In this document: in pieces, positions 10,358 through 62,378 of the stretch
Layout of the letters: the number at the start of each line of letters is the position of its first letter
Position numbering within the stretch: the first letter of the stretch is position 1
From: an uncultured Gammaproteobacteria bacterium
GTDB lineage: Bacteria > Patescibacteriota > Patescibacteriia > UBA1558 > UBA10009
DNA: 64,000 bases
Assembly (NCBI GenBank): GCA_964588165.1
Contig: CAZPMS010000001.1
Location: forward strand, 164,722 to 228,721
Direction: 5' to 3'
The notes under the pieces: model-generated
What the model saw: the letters and a program-made list of their open reading frames with translations, nothing else
Databases searched by the model: none
What the model was told of the DNA's origin: nothing
Made by a program: the position numbers and the translations under genes

Positions 10358-10646
10358 AATTTTTTCCTTTCTATCAAGCTAAGCTTGATACCTCCATTCC
10401 CGCTTTCGTTCTAATGAACGCAAGGAAAATATGGGAATGTGAGAGATAGTTAATAATCATGTATCGTATATCGTTTTTCGTATATCCTTATTTTTATTGA
10501 ACTTTATGGATACACTATACACAAAATACGTTACATGAAAAGATTTTAACACAATAGCCTATTTTTGGCAAGGCTATAACCTTAGGGATTGACAAAACAA
10601 CCTTCATTTAATAACCTAAGGGCGAAAGATAAAAGCTCATTCACAT

Positions 10647-26406: not shown

Positions 26407-26694
26407 TCATTTTATTAAATTCTCGTCAATATTATAGTTTTTATAAAAAACACCCATACCATGAAAATTCATGATACGGGTTTTTGATTCCTCCGGTATT
26501 TGTTGTAATTGTTTTGGTGAAGATACCGGCGATAGCTCTTGTTCGAGCTCATGGGAAGATGGGACATTCAAAGCAACACAAAGTGCAATGACAATCACCG
26601 AAATAATTATTATAATGCCAGTATACTTTGCAGCCCGATCCCAACGCCTTGGATCATCCTTTGGCCTATCTAAGGCCCATGAATTTCTATTCAT
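26407..26694 (-). CDS. Hypothetical small membrane protein in a GC-richer islet
   Basis: 95 aa, one TM (GIIIIISVIVIALCVAL); GGAGG Shine-Dalgarno 6 nt upstream of the ATG. Confidence 0.4.
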   Translation of the reverse strand: MNRNSWALDRPKDDPRRWDRAAKYTGIIIIISVIVIALCVALNVPSSHELEQELSPVSSPKQLQQIPEESKTRIMNFHGMGVFYKNYNIDENLIK

Positions 26695-26768
26695 AACAAC
26701 CTCCGGTTAAAAAATTCTATTTCGCGAGTTTTTTAGAATACCATATCTTAAAATCTTTGTCAATATTA

Positions 26769-27165
26769 TTGCTTTTCATTCAAAAATAATCTATAATTAT
26801 ACTTACCTAAATGATTGAGTAGTTTACCAACCTGCGTCCCGATGTTCGCTAACAGCGAAATCGGGTCCGAGGACTCCGATGAGTCTCGGACTCCATCGGA
26901 GATCCCGACTTTACATCGGGACTAAGTTTAGGTGACAATTTAAATAAGAGGGTTGATATTTTATCAAAAAATCTTTTAATCAACTAATCTTCCTATCTTT
27001 GATTTTTCAATGGAAGACTAAATGACTAAAAGATTAAATGATTATATTAAGAATTAGTATGATAATTATCAATCAAGTCAGGTGGAACCGCGGAAAGTTT
27101 ATACTTAAACCTTTCGTCCTGAGAATATCAAAATTGGTATTTTAAGGATGAGGGGTTTTTAAATT
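26769..27165 (+). promoter_or_regulatory. T-box riboswitch leader of thrS. Components: a TTGCTT-17-TATAAT promoter at 26769-26797, a GC-rich multi-hairpin Stem I candidate at 26836-26922, the T-box sequence at 27078-27093, and a terminator hairpin plus U5 at 27110-27160.
   Basis: Seen directly: ucAGGUGGAACCGCGG fits the conserved T-box motif AGGGUGGNACCGCGG. The downstream CCUUUCGUCCU...AGGAUGAGGGG helix (GU wobbles allowed) followed by UUUUU is an alternative terminator. The roughly 430-nt leader directly precedes thrS, a classic T-box-regulated gene. Confidence 0.55.
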
Positions 27166-27234
27166 GATTATTAATGAATGATGACTGATGATTAGCAATT
27201 AATCATTGATCATCAATTATTAATTTTTAACATT

Positions 27235-29043
27235 ATGAAAAATAATACACAAATAGAAAATCAAGCTCAGCTAGAAAAAGTCAGGCACTCCATATCTCAT
27301 TTAATGAGCATGGCGATAATTGAACTTTATCCTAAAACCGGCCTTGGCGTCGGACCTTTTATTGAAAATGGTTTTTATCAAGACTATGATTTGTCTGAAC
27401 CAATTTCTGAAGAAATCCTGCCCAAGCTGGAAAAAAGAATCAAAGAGTTAATTAAACAAGATATTAAATTTGAACAGCATGCCATGGATTTTAAAGAAGC
27501 CTTAAAAGAATATAAACATGATCCGTATAAAACTGAGATGATTGAAAATTTAAAAAAAGACGGAGAAAAAAACGTAAGTTTTTATAAATCCGATTGGTTT
27601 GAAAATTTATGCAAAGGCCCCCACGTAAAATCTACCAAAGAAATTGACCCCAGGGCTTTTAAACTTACCTCCATTGCAGGAGCTTATTGGCGTGGTGATG
27701 AAAAAAATAAAATGCTTACCCGAATTTACGGTGTTGCCTTTGAATCAAAAAATAAACTTAATGACTATTTAAAAATGGTAGAAGAAGCCAAAAAACGCGA
27801 CCACCGGAAAATCGGCAAAGATCTGGATTTATTCACTTTTTCCGAAACTGTAGGTAAAGGCTTGCCACTCTGGACCGAAAAAGGCGCCGTTATAAAACGC
27901 GAACTGGAAAATTTTATAATAAACGAAGAATTAAAACGCGGCTATAAACATGTAGTAACTCCAGATATGGCCAGGGTGGCTCTTTATAAAAAATCAGGCC
28001 ACTATCCTTACTATAAAGATTCCATGTATCCGCCAATTAAACTGGATGAAGAAGAATTCATGCTAAGGCCCATGGCTTGTCCTCACCATTTTGAGCTTTA
28101 TTTAAGCAAACCCCGCAGTTACCGCGATCTGCCACTTAGAATCGCCGAGTTGGCTAAGCTATACCGTTACGAAAAATCTGGTGAACTGACCGGCCTAATG
28201 AGAGTAAGAAATTTCTGTTTGGCTGATTCGCATATAATTTGCGCAGATAGCAAACAGGCCAAAGACGAAATAAATAATGTTTTAAATTTAATAGAATATG
28301 TGGCCGGAGTTTTTGGACTAAAATCAGGCAAAGATTATTCTTACAGATTTTCTTTAGGTGATAGAAAAAATGATAAAAAATATTACAAAGATAATAAAGC
28401 TTGGGATAGCGCCGAAAAAAACCTTAAAGCTGTTTTAGATAAAAGAAAAAGTAAATATGTAATAGCTCCAGATGAAGCGGCCTTTTACGGCCCTAAGGTT
28501 GATATCCAGATGAAAAACGTCATGGGCAAGGAAGACACCGCCTTTACTGTACAGTACGATTTTGTAATGCCAAAAAGATTCAACCTAACCTATACCAATA
28601 AAAAGGGAGATAATCAGGAGGCTATTGTTATCCACCGCTCTTCTATTGGCGCCATAGAAAGAAGCGTAGCCTTTTTAATTGAACATTTTGCCGGCAACTT
28701 CCCGTTATGGCTCTGCCCTATCCAAGTTAAAATAATTTCGGTTGGCTCGGACCATAAAAAGTTCTGCCAGAAATTAGCTAATAAATTAATAGCAGAAGGC
28801 TTGCGCGTAGAAACTGACTTGATAAATGAAACTGTTGGTAAAAAAATCAGAAATGCTTCTAAAGAAAAAATTCCTTACACCTTGGTAATTGGTGATAAAG
28901 AACTAAAATCCCTGCCTGCTGGCAGGCAAGGTGATAAGTTGGCTGTAAGAGTTAGGGGCGAAGAAAAACTATTGGAAATTGATTATGCTAAATTCGTTAA
29001 GAAGCTAAAGAAACTGATATCTGAAAAATCTCTTGGATTATGA
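27235..29043 (+). CDS. thrS: Threonyl-tRNA synthetase
   Basis: Class II aaRS motifs (FRNFCLADSH, HRSSIGAIER), anticodon-binding C-terminus; 602 aa, so a short form lacking part of the N-terminal extension. Confidence 0.95.
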   Translation: MKNNTQIENQAQLEKVRHSISHLMSMAIIELYPKTGLGVGPFIENGFYQDYDLSEPISEEILPKLEKRIKELIKQDIKFEQHAMDFKEALKEYKHDPYKTEMIENLKKDGEKNVSFYKSDWFENLCKGPHVKSTKEIDPRAFKLTSIAGAYWRGDEKNKMLTRIYGVAFESKNKLNDYLKMVEEAKKRDHRKIGKDLDLFTFSETVGKGLPLWTEKGAVIKRELENFIINEELKRGYKHVVTPDMARVALYKKSGHYPYYKDSMYPPIKLDEEEFMLRPMACPHHFELYLSKPRSYRDLPLRIAELAKLYRYEKSGELTGLMRVRNFCLADSHIICADSKQAKDEINNVLNLIEYVAGVFGLKSGKDYSYRFSLGDRKNDKKYYKDNKAWDSAEKNLKAVLDKRKSKYVIAPDEAAFYGPKVDIQMKNVMGKEDTAFTVQYDFVMPKRFNLTYTNKKGDNQEAIVIHRSSIGAIERSVAFLIEHFAGNFPLWLCPIQVKIISVGSDHKKFCQKLANKLIAEGLRVETDLINETVGKKIRNASKEKIPYTLVIGDKELKSLPAGRQGDKLAVRVRGEEKLLEIDYAKFVKKLKKLISEKSLGL

Positions 29044-40192: not shown

Positions 40193-40714
40193 ATGAAAAA
40201 TTTCTCCCACATCGTGGCCCTAGACCAAAAACACGGTATTGGCATAAACAATAAAATGCCTTGGCTAATTAAAGCCGATTTTAAATTTTTTACAGATACT
40301 ACCACCGGTAATAATCCTGATAAAAATAATGTGGTTATAATGGGACGCAAAACCTGGGATTCAATTCCTAAACATCATCAGCCGTTATCAAACCGGCTAA
40401 ATGTTGTTTTATCCAGGCAAAAAAACCTGGATCTGCCTAAAGGTGTTTTGCATTATACTTCTTTTGACCAAGCTCTTGAAGAACTGGCCAAAAATGATAA
40501 TATTGGTGAAGTTTTTAATATCGGCGGCGGCAAACTTTATGCCGAAACCATTAACCATCCAAACTGCAACAAATTATATATCACAAAAATTGAACGGACT
40601 TTTAACTGTGATACATTTTATCCGCCTATACCAAGTAAGTTTAAAAAAGTTGAAGAAAGTAAAATTTTTGAAGAAAACAATATTAAATTTAAGTTTGTAG
40701 TTTATAAAAGGTAA
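40193..40714 (+). CDS. folA: Dihydrofolate reductase
   Basis: IVALDQKHGIGINNKMPW...VIMGRKTWDSIP matches the DHFR signature. Confidence 0.9.
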   Translation: MKNFSHIVALDQKHGIGINNKMPWLIKADFKFFTDTTTGNNPDKNNVVIMGRKTWDSIPKHHQPLSNRLNVVLSRQKNLDLPKGVLHYTSFDQALEELAKNDNIGEVFNIGGGKLYAETINHPNCNKLYITKIERTFNCDTFYPPIPSKFKKVEESKIFEENNIKFKFVVYKR

Positions 40715-40737
40715 GGTTAATATAAAATACTTGTTAA

Positions 40738-40768
40738 GCCGACGGTTTTACACCGTCGGTTCTTTTTT
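40738..40768 (+). terminator. Intrinsic terminator of folA (gccgacggtttt aca ccgtcgg + T6)
   Basis: 8-bp GC-rich stem followed by TTCTTTTTT. Confidence 0.7.
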
Positions 40769-40794
40769 ACAAAAATAAATTATAAAAAAGACAA

Positions 40795-41140
40795 GCCCGC
40801 AACTTTTCTTTGGATGACCAGGGGGTTATCCATTGAAGTTTGCGGGCTTTTTTGCTGCTTATAGGCGCTGTGTGTCACTTGTTATTAGAAGTAGCCTCCT
40901 CGTGAGGCACATGTGATGTCACACAGAACTTAATGAACCTGTTCGCAGCAACTGCAGCGCTTCCTGACTTTCTCAGCCCCGTAGAGTTCCTCTCCTAAGG
41001 AGAGGTTCTGATTGTCGGTGGAACTTTTGGCCATTGAGGCGGTACAGGCTTTTGCCTGTAAAAGTGTGGAAGCTGCTCGGAAATAAATAATTCCATAGAG
41101 ACGTATGATTCGTCTCTTAAATAAGCAATATAATGATCGG
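40795..41140 (-). ncRNA. Candidate ncRNA transcription unit A, minus strand, about 350 nt. It has a TTGACA-16-TATAGT promoter at 41148-41180 and a nested hairpin plus U-run terminator at 40790-40855.
   Basis: No ORF of 60 aa or more in any frame. GC well above background. Multiple local hairpins (cctctcc/ggagagg, acaggc/gcctgt, agagacg/cgtctct). Identity unknown; no tmRNA or RNase P signatures were seen by eye. Confidence 0.35.
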
Positions 41141-41196
41141 GGATATTTACTATAGCATACTTAAATTATTTGTCAACCCTTTATTTTAAGTAAAAA

Positions 41197-41770
41197 AAGA
41201 CCGCCGTTTTTCCTAAGAAAAACGGCGGCTTCGCGGGCTGGCTGGTATACCGTACTTTTGGCCACGTCGCCTCTAATGGGCGGCGAAATGCCTGTATCGG
41301 CTACCTGTTGTGTATCGGCTGTGTGCCGAATTTGCGATCTTTGCCGATCCGATTTCCGGAACTTTCGCCAGGATTGTGCTTTCCCTGGCGGATAGATCGC
41401 TGTAAACCAGCATCGCTGTTGTACTTGCCGTCACTGTTTTAACGGCTCCCTTTCTGGCCTAGTTCCACTAACGTTTTCGTCATTGTCATAAATGACAAAT
41501 CATTGATAACGCAGTGACTTCTGGCAATTTGCGGTTGAACGCCTACGCGTTTTTTTCATGGATTTAACCATGTGCCAACAGTGACAACTACCGGTGTTCA
41601 TCCGGTCAGAAGAGGATCAACGCCTTTTCTGAATGTTCCGGAACGATGATTGGAAAGCATAGCTCTCCCGTCTCGATTTCGCACTCCCTAAGGAGTGGTA
41701 CCCAAACGTCCTTCGCGGACTGGGATTTTCAAATAACAATATTGCAGTGTATCACAATATTAAAATATTG
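41197..41770 (-). ncRNA. Candidate ncRNA transcription unit B, minus strand, about 550 nt. It has a TTGACA-17-TACACT promoter at about 41765-41795 and a 12-bp-stem terminator (gccgccgttttt/aaaaacggcggc + U-run) at 41197-41240.
   Basis: ORF-free, GC-elevated and hairpin-dense (gtcc-gcgaa-ggac, cactcc-ttag-ggagtg, ccagg...cctgg, aacgc-gtag-gcgtt). Might alternatively be a structured 3' UTR of the kinase gene. Confidence 0.3.
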
Positions 41771-41831
41771 TCAAGGGCTAATTTATGAATAAATATTACT
41801 TTTGCCTAATATTAGCCAAATTTAATTAATT

Positions 41832-42392
41832 CTATTCTTTAATTTCAGCTAATATTTCTTCAACCTTTTTATATAAATCATCCAAAGATCCATCGTTATT
41901 AAAAATGAATTTTGCCTCGTTGGCCACCTCCTCAATAAGGCTTTCTGCCTCTGCTGACTCATTTTTTTGGAATTGTTCAAAAGTCAACTCATCCTTTCCC
42001 TCCCCGGGATTCTGGCCACGGCCCATTATACGTTCATATCTTAATTTTTGATCAGCCTCTACACTAATTAAATAAAAATTTTTCAGCTTCTTTAAAAATT
42101 CTATATCTTTCGGCCTTCTAACTCCATCCACGCAAACTATCTTAGCTTGGGAGTTCTCAGCGTCTTTGGCTAAAACTTTGGCTAAAACTTCCTGCCCCAA
42201 AGCTTCACGTAATCCTTGAGAAACCTGTTGAAGATTTTCTCTGGAATGTGGCAAATAAAATCTATCTAAAACATCTCTTAGGGGTTTAGAAAAACCAAAA
42301 ATCTCTGCCTGATAATTTTCTACCAAATATTTACAAAAGGTAGTTTTTCCAGAACCAATTTTACCAACAAAACCAAAAATTATTTTATTCAT
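41832..42392 (-). CDS. P-loop nucleoside-monophosphate kinase-like protein (dNMP kinase / dephospho-CoA-kinase fold)
   Basis: Walker A GKIGSGKTT; 186 aa; immediately downstream of dCMP deaminase with a 1-nt gap. Confidence 0.45.
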   Translation of the reverse strand: MNKIIFGFVGKIGSGKTTFCKYLVENYQAEIFGFSKPLRDVLDRFYLPHSRENLQQVSQGLREALGQEVLAKVLAKDAENSQAKIVCVDGVRRPKDIEFLKKLKNFYLISVEADQKLRYERIMGRGQNPGEGKDELTFEQFQKNESAEAESLIEEVANEAKFIFNNDGSLDDLYKKVEEILAEIKE

Positions 42393-48065: not shown

Positions 48066-48095
48066 TTATAATTAAATTTTTGTCAAATAAAAAAG
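48066..48095 (-). promoter_or_regulatory. Putative promoter of the tRNA cluster (minus strand: TTGACA-17-TAATAT); duplicated at 48549-48582
   Basis: The reverse complement of tataattaaatttttgtcaaataaaaaag gives TTGACA ... TAATAT. An approximately 30-bp near-identical copy lies upstream of the 130-aa gene. Confidence 0.45.
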
Positions 48096-58076: not shown

Positions 58077-61076
58077 CTAAATTATATCTTTACAAAAGAA
58101 ACAATCAGGCTTATGATTTTTTAATTCTTTTTCCCAATCACAATTTTTAATTTCCTCAATTGTTTTAACTATAAACTCTTCTGTTTCTTTAATATCTTCC
58201 TTGGAGGCCACAAAAGACATATCAATATTATCAATTTCATTCTCTAAATAATAATAAGATAACTCTTTAATTTTACCATCGAGGAATGTATTTGCAGCCA
58301 TTTGATATAAAATTAGCTGTCTTTTATCCTCCAGCCTTAATTTATCTTTAGGTTTGCCGGTTTTATAATCTATTATTTTATAACCATCTTTAAATTCATC
58401 AATTCTATCTATCTTACCTGTTACCATATATTTTTGAATTTTTATTCCAAATCCTTTTTCTAAATAAGCTGGTAAGGACCGGTCTATAAAATCGCTTTCA
58501 TAAAATCTTTTTAGAATATCTTTACCTTTTTTAAAATAACTATTCTTATCACTAACTGATTCATACCAATCGTCTATCCAGACCTCTTGATAAATGTTAA
58601 GCAAATAATCAAGACTTACTAAATCTCTAATGGTTTTTGATTTCTTACCTTTTCGGTCTGTCCCGAGCGAAGCCGAGGGACCCCTTAGTTTTGAATCCGT
58701 CTGGTCAAAAAGACCAACTTGACTAGAGCCTTGTCTGCGTTTAACTTCTTCATAAAATTTCTGCAGCGCTAGATGAATTGTTGAACCAAAACTAAAGCGA
58801 AAATTACCTTTTGAAGGAACCTTTAATATTGTGTTATAAAAATAAGCTCGTTTACATAGTTTAAAACTGGACAGTTGCGAAAATGAAAATCTAGTCGGTA
58901 ATGGATATTTATAGGTTGTAGGTTGTAGATTGTAGGTTGTAGGTTTAATTTTTTCAATTGACTCAAGTTTCTCATTTTTAGAAGATTTTTGTTTTGATTG
59001 ACTGAATCTTAAATCATCTAGGAAAACTGAAATTTTCTTGTTCCTTACACCGCCATAATCTTCGGCTGAAGTAAAATACAGGCCTTCCTTGGCACGCGTC
59101 ATGCCTACATAAAACAACCGCCTTTCTTCTTGTAAATGAATATTGCCTTCCGGGATAATTTCCTTAACCAAACTATCTGGCAATAAAATTGGATCTTTCC
59201 TTTCTGAAGTTGGGAAGCGCCTATCTACCATATTCACTAAAAAAACATGTTTAAATTCCAAACCTTTAGCTCCATGAACTGTCATCACTTTTACCATTTC
59301 TGGACTCTCATCTTCTGTTAACGGCTGGATATCACCTTGTTCGCCCGATTCTATTTCTAAACCTAACTGCTTTAAAAAGTTTTTTACTGATTTATCGTCG
59401 TTTAATTCTTCAAAAACCTTTATTCGCCTATAAAATTGGCCCAGGTATGAAAATTGCTGCCTTTTATTAAATTCATCTAAAGAATCAACATATTTTAGAT
59501 AACCTGACTCATTTAAAAAATCAAAAATAATTCTGCTGGTTTTGGCATTCTTGGCCTGGCTAATAAATTTTTCTAATAAACGGACTGACTTATCTAACTC
59601 AGCCTGGCTCACATCTGATAATCTGATCAATGCCCGGGCCTGCCTGGCCACTTCGTACAAATTCCATCTTTTTTTATAAGCTTGATGGGTAATTTTTATT
59701 ATTTCTTCCTGCTCCATTTTAAAAATCGGCATAGTTAAATACCTATACATGGCATCTGATTCATGGAAATCATCAAGTAACTTTAAAAAGGCTACCAAAT
59801 TTAAAATGACCGGTTTTGCATAAAGGCCTTTAGAGGCCACGAATTGATAAGGAATTCCGGCCCGTTCCAAACCTTCAATAAACGGCTTAGCCTGGTTATT
59901 GGCCCTTACCAATATTGCGAAATTTGACCAATTATTTTTTAGTGGATCTTTTTTGTAAAGTGAGCCGATTTTATTTATTACTTTTGCCACCTCTTCGTCA
60001 GCAGTAGGCAAATGCAAATGTTCAATGGTGCCTTTAGATTTTGAAGGTGACTTTAATTCCTTGGAAAGTTTTTTATTGCCTATTTTAAGCTGGGCTTCCA
60101 AACGGTTAGGATTATTGAGCTGAATGAATTTATAGGCTAAATCTAAAATATTCTGCTTGGTTCGGTAATTGATACTTAAATAAACTTCTGCAGATTTTGG
60201 AAAATCTTTTTTAAATTCTAAAATGTTTGAAATTGATGCTCCGCGGAATTTATAGATTGACTGATCATCATCCCCTACCACAGTGATGTTGTTTTGAGGC
60301 AGGGCTAAAAGTTTAATTAATTGATACTGGGCATAATTAGTATCCTGAAATTCATCAACCAAAACATATTTAAATTGATTTTGGTATTGTTTTAAAATCT
60401 TAGGCCGTTTTTGGAAAAGTTCATAACAATAATTTATTAAATCACCAAAATCCAAATAATCATTATCCAATAGCAGTTGCTGATACACATGATAAGCATT
60501 GGCTACTTCTTCTAATCTTTTAACTTCAAGAGCTGCGTCTTCATCTTTCCTTAAATCATTATCCAAACGATATGATTCGGCATATTTAAGATAATCTTTT
60601 GGTTCTACCATTTCGTCTTTGGCTTTGGAAAAATGTTTTAGCAAGGCATGAATAAATTTATTAGGATTGCCAAGGGGCTTATAATAATCCAGATCAAACT
60701 TATTTAAATTATTCCTAACCAACAACCAGGCTGCTGTTTGGTCTAAAACTTTAAATTCCGTGGTTAAACCGACTTCCAAACCGTGCTTTTTTAAAATCCG
60801 TTCAGCAAAAGCATGGAAAGTGGAAATCCATAAATCCACATAACCCATTGGTAAAGCCCTATCCACCCGCTCCTCCATTTCTGCGGCCGCCTTTTCCGTA
60901 AAAGTTAAAGCCAATACTTCTTCCGGCTGGATTTTTTGCTTGGTAATAAGCCAGTTTATCCTTTCGGTAATAACGGTGGTTTTACCGGTACCGGCGCCGG
61001 CCACAATTAAAAGCGGCCCCTTTGCATGTTGAACCGCCTTTTTCTGCTCTGGATTTAACTTGTCTGCATAACTCAT
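58077..61076 (-). CDS. UvrD/PcrA-family superfamily-1 helicase fused to a C-terminal PD-(D/E)XK (RecB/AddA-like) nuclease domain with a 4-Cys cluster
   Basis: Walker A AGAGTGKTT at the N-terminus and UvrD motifs. The C-terminal region has ...DYKTGKPKDK and CDWEKELKNHKPDCFFCKD Cys residues. 999 aa. Contains an (aggttgt)x5 heptamer repeat at 58913-58946. Confidence 0.8.
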   Translation of the reverse strand: MSYADKLNPEQKKAVQHAKGPLLIVAGAGTGKTTVITERINWLITKQKIQPEEVLALTFTEKAAAEMEERVDRALPMGYVDLWISTFHAFAERILKKHGLEVGLTTEFKVLDQTAAWLLVRNNLNKFDLDYYKPLGNPNKFIHALLKHFSKAKDEMVEPKDYLKYAESYRLDNDLRKDEDAALEVKRLEEVANAYHVYQQLLLDNDYLDFGDLINYCYELFQKRPKILKQYQNQFKYVLVDEFQDTNYAQYQLIKLLALPQNNITVVGDDDQSIYKFRGASISNILEFKKDFPKSAEVYLSINYRTKQNILDLAYKFIQLNNPNRLEAQLKIGNKKLSKELKSPSKSKGTIEHLHLPTADEEVAKVINKIGSLYKKDPLKNNWSNFAILVRANNQAKPFIEGLERAGIPYQFVASKGLYAKPVILNLVAFLKLLDDFHESDAMYRYLTMPIFKMEQEEIIKITHQAYKKRWNLYEVARQARALIRLSDVSQAELDKSVRLLEKFISQAKNAKTSRIIFDFLNESGYLKYVDSLDEFNKRQQFSYLGQFYRRIKVFEELNDDKSVKNFLKQLGLEIESGEQGDIQPLTEDESPEMVKVMTVHGAKGLEFKHVFLVNMVDRRFPTSERKDPILLPDSLVKEIIPEGNIHLQEERRLFYVGMTRAKEGLYFTSAEDYGGVRNKKISVFLDDLRFSQSKQKSSKNEKLESIEKIKPTTYNLQPTTYKYPLPTRFSFSQLSSFKLCKRAYFYNTILKVPSKGNFRFSFGSTIHLALQKFYEEVKRRQGSSQVGLFDQTDSKLRGPSASLGTDRKGKKSKTIRDLVSLDYLLNIYQEVWIDDWYESVSDKNSYFKKGKDILKRFYESDFIDRSLPAYLEKGFGIKIQKYMVTGKIDRIDEFKDGYKIIDYKTGKPKDKLRLEDKRQLILYQMAANTFLDGKIKELSYYYLENEIDNIDMSFVASKEDIKETEEFIVKTIEEIKNCDWEKELKNHKPDCFFCKDII

Positions 61077-61206
61077 ATAGCCCTATTTTAGCATAAAAAC
61101 CTTTTATTCAAAACTATTCTAATACTTGACATAAATCCAATTTTTTGATAATTTAACTTATTAAAAGAACATTTAAAGCCAACGATATCCTAGTGGGAGA
61201 AAAAAA

Positions 61207-61623
61207 ATGAGGATTACAATTTTTTACCAAGGTGGGCAAGACGACACTCAACGATTCAATGGTAAAGACACGCCATTTAACCCGGAAAAAACAGTTGTAG
61301 CAAACATATTTGCTATACTGAAAACTATTCACCGGGAAAAGAAAAAGGGGAAATACAGAGGGAAACAATCAAGTTACCATATCGCCTTTACTGATAAAGA
61401 TATGAGATATATCTTTCATCAATTTGAAAGTATAACCGGTTATTTGCCGGAATGGTCACGTAATGTTCACTCTCTTTTTGAATTAATATTGGGGTATTTA
61501 AAAGTTCAAGAAAACTACCATGAGTTAAATATCTCGATCTTGGAGTTAGCTGCTATACCGGCCGAAGGAGTAATGGTAGCGTCTGAATCATCACTTCATT
61601 GTCTTAATGTTAAATTTGGCTAA
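61207..61623 (+). CDS. Hypothetical protein (GC-richer)
   Basis: 138 aa; GGGAGA RBS; hairpin terminator at about 61640-61675. Confidence 0.4.
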   Translation: MRITIFYQGGQDDTQRFNGKDTPFNPEKTVVANIFAILKTIHREKKKGKYRGKQSSYHIAFTDKDMRYIFHQFESITGYLPEWSRNVHSLFELILGYLKVQENYHELNISILELAAIPAEGVMVASESSLHCLNVKFG

Positions 61624-61684
61624 ATCGTCAATCTAGCTTTCCAACTCCGGACACCAGTCTGGAGTTTTTCTTTATATTGACATA

Positions 61685-61881
61685 TTGACAAAAAAAGCAT
61701 AATCATTTAATATGGCCTTATAATCGTAATTTTGGGACAGGCCGTTGCTAAGTAAACGGTTTACTCGGCAAGCTAGCTATTATTGCTTCCAATGGCCTGT
61801 CCTCGTTTTTCCCCCACGGCATGGGACAAAAGTCTCATGCCACCCCTGATCCCGCTTCTACAGTTGAGGCGGGATTTTTTT
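61685..61881 (+). ncRNA. Candidate stand-alone sRNA, about 160 nt. It has a TTGACA-17-TAATAT promoter at 61685-61713 and an intrinsic terminator (cccgc...gcggg + U7) at 61851-61881.
   Basis: Two strong internal helices (gggacaggcc...ggcctgtcc enclosing about 65 nt, and ggcatg...catgcc); GC-rich; no + strand coding gene downstream. Confidence 0.4.
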
Positions 61882-61916
61882 GTTTAAAAAAACGCCTCTT
61901 TTTTTAAAAGAGACGT

Positions 61917-62378
61917 TTAGAGAACATGCTTTGTGTATTCTCTTACTTTAGGCGTAGTCAAATCCAACAGAATAATCTCCTCAGCTGCCTGCGGTGTTAC
62001 CAAATCTAGATAAATTTCGGGCAAGTTACCGTTGGCTTGGCTAATTATTTCAGCTGCCTGCTTTGGGCTATATTTCCCAAAAATTATCAGCCAGCCAAAG
62101 CCATGCCAAATGCTCCATTCATCAAAAATTTCCTCTTCGCACCTTAATGAGCTAATTACTTCCCAGGGGGTTTGCCTTAAAAACATTTTGTGCCATAACT
62201 GATGAGGCGGCTGGTCTAGCCTGATTTTATTCCATCCTTGGCCATTAGGCTTCATGCCAAAAAAATTAGAAGCATCTCTAATAGCCTCAGGCCGACTCCT
62301 GGGAATACAATGATGAATTGAAATACCCCGATCAAGCCTCCCAGACCAATCTCTGTAAACTAAAAAGGGGTCCTCCAT
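61917..62378 (-). CDS. HNH-like endonuclease domain protein (putative), GC-richer
   Basis: ISIHHCIPRS...N...LDQPPHQLWH resembles an HNH core (HH...N...H) but without the Cys zinc finger; 153 aa. Confidence 0.3.
   Translation of the reverse strand: MEDPFLVYRDWSGRLDRGISIHHCIPRSRPEAIRDASNFFGMKPNGQGWNKIRLDQPPHQLWHKMFLRQTPWEVISSLRCEEEIFDEWSIWHGFGWLIIFGKYSPKQAAEIISQANGNLPEIYLDLVTPQAAEEIILLDLTTPKVREYTKHVL

Follow-up and report, generated by a model that had tools for sequence, protein, structure and literature searches.

A candidate regulatory small RNA gene beside a helicase-nuclease gene in a Komeilibacteria genome

The DNA analysed here is a 64,000-nucleotide (nt) stretch of contig CAZPMS010000001.1 (positions 164,722 to 228,721, hereafter the window) from a genome of the Komeilibacteria, which belong to the Patescibacteria or candidate phyla radiation (CPR). 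A short unit within it, at 61720-61881, is probably an independent RNA gene. It is a credible candidate for a regulatory RNA, unremarkable in itself and with no assigned function. The best explanation, which is held tentatively, is that the unit encodes an independently transcribed, strand-specific, non-coding small RNA (sRNA) that would base-pair through its C-rich linker or linkers with ribosome-binding sites (RBS).

The unit begins at a promoter of a recognizable kind. The TTGACA-17-TAATAT element at 61685-61713 that was named in the initial annotation is present as described. Moreover, an extra TTGACA lies 8 nt upstream of the main -35 box (61677), and a perfect TATAAT can be read from the sequence at 61719-61724, which would place an alternative transcript start near 61731 if this second box serves. 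A generic promoter scan of the AT-rich window did not rise above chance, with 5 sites found and 4.8 expected. Since such a scan is uninformative in AT-rich DNA, a stricter motif, TTGACA-N16-18-TAnnnT, was tested. This motif occurs 14 times in the window compared to 2.2 ± 1.8 times in dinucleotide shuffles, a 6-fold excess, and all 14 sites are intergenic, with intergenic DNA making up 15% of the window. The set includes the promoter of a tRNA-His/Gly/Ser operon at 48086 (TTGACAAAAA...TAATAT), which has the same design as the sRNA promoter. The motif is a real promoter class here, and the sRNA promoter is a good member of it.

At the 3′ end, a terminator scan recovered the cccgc...gcggg hairpin that had been proposed as terminator, with an 11-base-pair (bp) stem at 61848-61876 and a U7 tract ending at 61881. 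Terminators separate all three units of this region, as the upstream gene of 138 amino acids (aa), the sRNA unit and the convergent 153-aa gene each have their own. The earlier description of a stand-alone promoter-to-terminator unit is borne out by these boundaries. The local GC content is 0.45-0.48 compared to 0.35 for the window. No plus-strand gene lies downstream. Therefore, the unit is not a 5′ leader, a point already made in the initial annotation, and it is not primarily a 3′ untranslated region (UTR) either.

RNAfold predicts three helices on the plus strand, namely P1, P2 and the terminator. The minimum free energy (MFE) of this fold is -66.6 kcal/mol compared to -41.0 ± 3.8 kcal/mol for shuffled sequences (z -6.7), and none of 200 shuffles is as stable. 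The minus strand reaches -55.0 kcal/mol (z -3.4), which leaves the plus strand an advantage of 11.6 kcal/mol. Five G-U pairs turn into C-A mismatches on the minus strand, and the fold is thus specific to the plus strand, on which promoter and terminator lie. The closing helix of P1, which was also picked up as an inverted repeat, is present as first reported, but it is 14 bp long and not 10. The ggcatg...catgcc helix corresponds to P2 (61818-61841, 10 bp). Two runs of four or more C residues occur in the 162-nt RNA (C5 at 61811 and C4 at 61843), where 0.15 would be expected from the window, and both are unpaired.

No known RNA family accounts for the unit. Rfam 15, which had been suggested as a check, returned only three tRNAs from the whole window at gathering thresholds, and ARAGORN found no tRNA or transfer-messenger RNA (tmRNA) in the unit. 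When the region 61550-62000 was searched at E<=10, only sub-threshold alignments of the terminator type appeared. The nearest of these, at 14-18 bits compared to gathering thresholds of 39-50, were to anti-hemB (RF02837), NsiR1 (RF02399) and a Betaproteobacteria toxic sRNA (RF02278). They cover the terminator hairpin and U-tail only, and these families were rejected as relatives because such alignments are chance terminator matches. RNase P, the signal recognition particle RNA (SRP), 6S RNA, a riboswitch that has lost its gene and a retron were also rejected, as, by a reading of the sequence, their diagnostic motifs and partner genes are missing and no Rfam match points to them.

Homologues of the unit are equally scarce. 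The search in related genomes, phages and plasmids that was proposed at the outset found only identical contigs of the same strain. Specifically, blastn and Smith-Waterman comparison with 105 related loci returned identical copies alone (L001-L006 and L106). The window DNA is 100% identical across the unit in at least six metagenome assemblies (L001-L006), and the contig L106, from a 99% variant strain, covers the RNA over its 3′ 68 nt only, without a single difference. A single-sequence covariance model of the RNA found nothing in 738 kb of related loci. A phage or plasmid origin was rejected, as neither viral contigs nor phage or plasmid records matched the unit, and so was a repeated or mobile element, as the window contains no second copy and no flanking repeats. 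The initial annotation would have given up its reading if both expression and conservation were lacking. As far as conservation is concerned, no homologue was found beyond the same strain.

In the proposed mechanism, a strong housekeeping-type promoter would start the transcript just 5′ of the long hairpin P1. The transcript would then run through P1 into an unpaired C/U-rich linker of 14 nt (L1), through P2 into a short C-rich linker (L2), and from there into the terminator. One or both of the unpaired C-rich linkers may pair with G-rich ribosome-binding sites and thereby block the initiation of translation. As a target, the neighbouring orphan gene of 138 aa, which has the same orientation, is the best candidate. 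The predicted pairing is between 5′-UUUUUC-C-CCCAC-3′ of the sRNA (61806-61817) and 5′-GUGGG-A-GAAAAA-3′ (61193-61204), and it comprises 11 bp with one C/A mismatch. Judged by reading the sequence and not from a computed structure, it could extend through a 3-nt bulge to CCUC:GAGG over codon 2. Among the 69 start regions of the window, that of the 138-aa gene ranks first for duplex formation with the L1 seed, at -20.9 kcal/mol (mean -7.0, standard deviation (sd) 3.9), and shuffled seeds reach this value in 0.3% of trials. It also ranks first of 69 when the whole RNA is cofolded with P1, P2 and the terminator kept intact, with a free energy difference (ddG) of -14.5 (mean -5.0, sd 3.0).

Several observations weigh against this explanation. 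The 138-aa target was noticed post hoc, the margin in the cofold analysis is small (-14.5 compared to -12.8, -12.7 and -12.4 for the next start regions), and the duplex consists in part of a U-run facing an A-run, which is common in an AT-rich genome. At the analogous locus L105, where an open reading frame (ORF) is likewise followed by an RNA, there is no such complementarity. The excess of C over G at unpaired positions is not above that of shuffled sequences (0.79 compared to 0.74 ± 0.06), and it was dropped as evidence for pairing with Shine-Dalgarno (SD) sequences. Furthermore, the RNA is without a homologue beyond identical contigs of the same strain, so that neither covariation nor conservation speaks for it. 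Action by base pairing at ribosome-binding sites is held as a working view whose chances are somewhat below even. That the 138-aa gene is the target, as the complementarity would suggest, is more doubtful.

The place that the unit occupies is known in relatives. An AddA-like UvrD/PD-(D/E)XK helicase-nuclease, encoded at 58077-61076 on the minus strand, neighbours the sRNA region, and its closest named relatives (66-75% identity) come from metagenome-assembled genomes (MAGs) of Candidatus Komeilibacteria and other Patescibacteria. Loci anchored on this helicase were collected from genomes (7) and metagenomes (80), along with 11 additional contigs. The gene order in Komeilibacteria is atpD - atpC - (NhaP) - [gap] - helicase - small ORF - pheS - pheT. 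The gap in this order is here termed the slot. On the strand opposite the helicase, the slot of at least eight separate lineages carries a GC-rich structured RNA that follows a TTGAC-type promoter and ends in an intrinsic terminator (Table 1). In L023, L100, L102 and L104 the gap is short or unstructured. The slot RNAs of L008, L009 and L011 have no match in Rfam at gathering thresholds or in ARAGORN, and the gaps of L008 and L011 have none in a permissive Rfam search either.

Six of the slot RNAs are related to each other by sequence, with Smith-Waterman z values of 4-79 among linked members. In the alignment of three of the related RNAs (L097, L105 and L008), compensatory changes are found in 30 of 118 predicted pairs. 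The 5′ domain of the family comprises helix H1 (GCGGCUUG..CAAGCCGC), helix H2 (GGCGUU..AACGCC) and a GAGUUU linker. H2 is conserved in all five RNAs that have this domain (the three just named, L011 and L095), and its tip covaries. These five members score 118-181 bits with a covariance model of the domain. The RNA at L015:3180-3370(-) is the 3′ portion of an RNA like that of L095 (L095:2250-2590(-)), placed straight behind the same promoter, with a Smith-Waterman z of about 15. The slot RNA gene is lineage-specific and evolves via gain and loss of whole hairpin modules behind a conserved promoter. Two internally repeated modules are apparent by eye in the RNA at L099:2455-2935(-). Together, these features suggest that the RNA gene keeps its place while its modules turn over rapidly.

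Table 1. Features of the sRNA region (window positions) and of the slot in other Komeilibacteria (locus positions). Lengths of the slot RNAs are approximate.
Feature	Position	Strand	Length	Remarks
Promoter of 138-aa gene	61126..61154	+		TTGACA-17-GATAAT-type; one of the 14 strict-motif sites
Predicted target site	61193..61204	+		GUGGGAGAAAAA; SD and A-rich spacer of 138-aa gene (ATG 61207)
138-aa orphan ORF	61207..61623	+		Own SD, promoter and terminator; putative target
Terminator of 138-aa gene	61643..61675	+		10-bp stem AACUCCGGAC/GUCUGGAGUU (61643-61666), then UUUUUCUUU; from terminator scan
sRNA promoter	61677..61713	+		Tandem -35 TTGACA (61677-61682, 61685-61690), 17-nt spacer, -10 TAATAT (61708-61713)
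Predicted transcript	61720..61881	+	about 150-162 nt	5′ end inferred from -10 box
P1 domain	61734..61803	+		14-bp closing stem (GGGACAGGCCGUUG / CAAUGGCCUGUCCU) with two G-U pairs; imperfect hairpin inside
Linker L1	61804..61817	+	14 nt	CGUUUUUCCCCCAC; C/U-rich candidate seed, unpaired in MFE and centroid structures
P2 hairpin	61818..61841	+		10 bp, GGCAUGGGAC-AAAA-GUCUCAUGCC, AAAA loop
Linker L2	61842..61847	+		ACCCCU; second unpaired C-run
sRNA intrinsic terminator	61848..61881	+		11-bp stem, 7-nt loop, U7
Terminator of 153-aa gene	61887..61920	-		AACGUCUCUUUU/AAAAGAGGCGUU, then U-run; echoed in sub-threshold Rfam terminator-type alignments
153-aa orphan ORF	61917..62378	-		Convergent; SD and terminator; gene earlier called HNH-like
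L015 slot RNA			190 nt	MFE z -6.9; sequence essentially as in L009 and L096
L095 slot RNA			340 nt	MFE z -8.5
L017 = L103 slot RNA			350 nt	MFE z -5.7
L011 slot RNA			420 nt	MFE z -6.6
L099 slot RNA			480 nt	MFE z -4.6
L105 slot RNA			514 nt	MFE z -8.0
L097 slot RNA			554 nt	MFE z -8.6
L008 slot RNA			604 nt	MFE z -9.3
Conserved slot RNA	L097:2372-2925, L105:1857-2370, L008:5287-5890	-	~510-600 nt	Align throughout; helices H1-H5 kept
Shared 5′ domain	L011:5676-5875, L095:2353-2580	-		Common to L097, L105 and L008

The two ORFs that flank the unit look like real genes, and both are orphans. The initial annotation had described them as two small genes richer in GC. This description fits the 153-aa gene (about 0.42-0.45) and does not fit the 138-aa gene, which is at about genome level (0.31-0.37). 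The 138-aa protein, judged by its translation, is hydrophilic and rich in charged residues. Pfam, NCBIfam and PADLOC assign it to no family, and its one PHROG match, of unknown function, is sub-threshold. A word-indexed search of 5.8 billion proteins returned only the protein itself, and HMMER, run exhaustively against 1.8 billion representatives, gave three weak partial matches of about 45 residues each. Its AlphaFold model is poor, with a predicted local distance difference test score (pLDDT) of 59, and Foldseek gave noise only. The ORF is unrelated to those of L105 and L098 that separate the helicase from the RNA or take the place of the RNA, and it has no homology to the ORF at the equivalent position in L099.

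The 153-aa protein had been called HNH-like. This label rests on a short string in the translation, HHCIPRSR...N...H..WH, which recalls an HNH core, and neither profiles nor PDB sequences bear it out. No HNH match (PF01844) was obtained in Pfam at E<=10, in NCBIfam, PHROGs or PADLOC, or among PDB sequences. No other family was assigned by Pfam, NCBIfam or PADLOC, and PHROGs gave sub-threshold matches to families of unknown function only. Among the 5.8 billion proteins, the search found the protein itself and a 99% variant. Its AlphaFold model is unusable (pLDDT 34).

These features bear on how else the unit might be explained. A role of the RNA as partner or guide for the 153-aa protein would be suggested by their adjacency and by the HNH-like string. 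However, even permissive searches found no HNH domain, the gene is convergent with a separate terminator, no repeats or guide-like array are present and the protein model is unusable, so that this reading is the least probable of those considered. A coding role of the unit is unlikely as well, and a small protein of 28-34 aa would be only marginally more probable than a guide RNA. There are two 34-codon frames with TTG starts (61745-61849 and 61783-61887), an internal ATG at 61792 and, beginning with the ATG at 61821, a frame of 28 codons. However, the TTG starts are buried in P1, and none of the small frames is preceded by a Shine-Dalgarno sequence, whereas real genes in the window have strong ones. 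The starts lie within stable helices, the frames cross the terminator and no homologues were seen. The initial annotation had itself raised the alternative that the unit is the 3′ UTR of the 138-aa gene. The two share their orientation, the unit lies 60 nt past the stop codon, and leaky termination is conceivable; intrinsic terminators are rarely 100% efficient. This alternative was not upheld, as the 10-bp terminator (61643-61666) and its T-run (to 61675) intervene and a promoter of the validated class follows directly. An origin of the unit as a read-through extension is thus very improbable.

It is unlikely, to a much lesser degree, that the unit has no function and is a decaying remnant of an RNA gene or an insulating hairpin stack, with a promoter that fires to no effect. 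Such a remnant would be in keeping with conservation limited to one strain, with a slot that is unstable and is empty or unstructured in L023, L100, L102 and L104, and with a location where genes turn over and where an orphan gene lies on either side. On the other hand, a duplicated -35 box of consensus quality with a good -10 box is unexpected in decaying sequence. The same holds for three near-perfect helices, G-U pairs that favour the transcribed strand and a canonical terminator, and extra insulation would be needless because both flanking genes have terminators of their own. Somewhat more probable, although still on the unlikely side, is that the RNA is a strongly diverged and minimised ortholog of the Komeilibacteria slot RNAs (190-600 nt, with modular hairpins). 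It may then bind a protein instead of base-pairing, and what is left of it in the window would be the promoter, the terminator and one or two of the hairpin modules. Such an ortholog would be compatible with a base-pairing sRNA and would not strictly exclude it. The RNA shares its slot and its orientation, divergent from the helicase and convergent with atpC/NhaP, with the RNAs of L008, L011, L015 (with L009 and L096), L017 (identical to L103), L095, L097, L099 and L105. It also resembles the slot RNAs in promoter type, GC-rich hairpins and intrinsic terminator. Several short strings recur: the promoter core TTGACAAAA is common to the window, L015, L017 and L095, and the 5′ arm of the terminator, CCCGCUUCU, is common to the window RNA and L015. 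P1 of the window starts with UUUUGGGACAGG and ends with CCUGUCC, and H3 of L011 starts with UUUUCGGGACAAGG and ends with CCUUGUCCC. Moreover, slot RNAs do vary by entire hairpin modules, as the RNA of L015 illustrates. Against common descent, the Smith-Waterman z is at most 1.4 between the window RNA and every slot RNA, and the slot loci contain no match to the covariance model built on the window RNA. The best score of the 5′-domain model in the window is 14.9 bits (E 0.7) and lies elsewhere (10359-10512). The slot RNAs are 190-600 nt long and five have the H1-H2 domain, which the window RNA lacks. The window slot also houses two orphan genes, and the whole cassette may be a replacement. The shared strings are suggestive but anecdotal, and membership in the slot family is not demonstrable.

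The base-pairing sRNA could also be part of a larger arrangement. The sRNA and the 138-aa gene would then be the two halves of one cassette, with the RBS of the gene masked by the sRNA, as a type I-like toxin-antitoxin (TA) or self-limiting module. The slot around it would be a Komeilibacteria hotspot where structured RNA genes are rapidly born, shuffled in their modules and replaced. This proposal is improbable as a whole, and it is rated slightly lower than a functionless unit. If it were true, the pair would rank among the first sRNA-mRNA regulatory pairs to be proposed in CPR bacteria, and it would exemplify the de novo turnover of RNA genes at a fixed site. CPR bacteria, or Patescibacteria, have reduced genomes and are mostly uncultivated, and a literature search found no description of regulatory sRNAs or structured RNAs in them. 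An sRNA gene with clear boundaries, next to a target that can be tested, would be a concrete starting point. The unrelated-looking or fast-diverging RNAs of the slot, up to 600 nt in length, and the three further unclassified RNA units of the window described below probably outweigh the single 160-nt unit in value.

Further structured units were seen in the window. On the minus strand at 41190-41775 lies a unit of ~556 nt, with a TTGACA-17-TACACT promoter at about 41774 and a terminator (GCCGCCGUUUUUCUUAGGAAAAACGGCGG, then a U-run). It is a candidate for a large unclassified structured RNA (MFE -199.6, z -7.4), has no Rfam, tRNA or tmRNA match and is unlike the sRNA unit and the slot RNAs. Directly downstream on the same strand, at 40780-41180, is a unit of ~366 nt with a promoter (GGGTTGACAAATAATTTAAGTATGCTATAGT) at about 41176 and a terminator (AAGCCCGCAAAC...GUUGCGGGCUU, then a U-run); its MFE is -123.3 (z -7.1), and it has no Rfam match. 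These two units fill a 1.1-kb gap (40714-41832) that has no ORFs of 90 aa or more. On the plus strand at 26800-26935, a GC-rich structured element of 135 nt (z -5.0) lies in the intergenic gap 26694-27235 and has no Rfam match at gathering thresholds. A further hairpin region, at 27070-27160, lies upstream of the ORF that starts at 27235. The slot RNAs, together with the unclassified promoter-to-terminator units of ~135, 366 and 556 nt in the window, suggest that Komeilibacteria carry a set of lineage-specific structured RNAs outside Rfam.

Some observations concern the genes around the slot. A (G)GTAAAATA motif lies 6-8 nt ahead of the helicase ATG (61076, minus strand; window 61077-61110) and is kept in L008, L011, L015, L023 and L097. 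No Shine-Dalgarno sequence can be read at the helicase start in the window or in relatives, and the motif looks like a -10 box that may give a leaderless helicase mRNA. Several helicase orthologues of Komeilibacteria (P0004, P0006, P0007, P0015; L105:3001-7104) exceed the window copy by ~350 aa and contain an intein (hits to Pfam Intein_splicing / Hint), which the window copy lacks. At L099:1520-1867, just upstream of atpC, there is a gene of the bAvd / 23S rRNA IVS-protein family. Diversity-generating retroelements have accessory proteins of this type; the 9-kb L099 locus showed no reverse transcriptase.

Among known systems, two kinds of sRNA invite comparison. RsaE/RoxS (RF01820) and the hairpin loops of RNAIII of S. 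aureus are examples of sRNAs in low-GC bacteria that base-pair through C-rich motifs. Like the window RNA, they are stand-alone units of ~100-500 nt with a sigma-70-type promoter, an intrinsic terminator and a few stable hairpins. Unpaired C-runs of the window RNA could likewise pair with a G-rich SD, although this resemblance is functional only and the pairing in the window is predicted. The RsaE/RoxS model has no match in 61550-62000 at E<=10, and the host belongs to a different phylum, CPR. The second kind comprises the non-overlapping antitoxin sRNAs of type I toxin-antitoxin pairs, such as IstR-1/TisB, RalA/RalR and SymR/SymE (the last with a larger toxin). In these pairs, an sRNA lies beside a gene with whose RBS region it can form a short duplex (11-16 bp), as is predicted for the window, and in both cases the sRNA and its neighbour each have a strong promoter of their own. 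Unlike the short hydrophobic toxins of such pairs (usually <60 aa), the neighbour in the window is a hydrophilic orphan of 138 aa with no match to a toxin family in Pfam, NCBIfam or PADLOC, and the two genes lie in tandem instead of being divergent or overlapping. The window RNA thus resembles the C-rich sRNAs in function and the type I antitoxin sRNAs in arrangement and is a member of neither group, which makes it a new, so far single-strain, candidate for a promoter-to-terminator regulatory sRNA.

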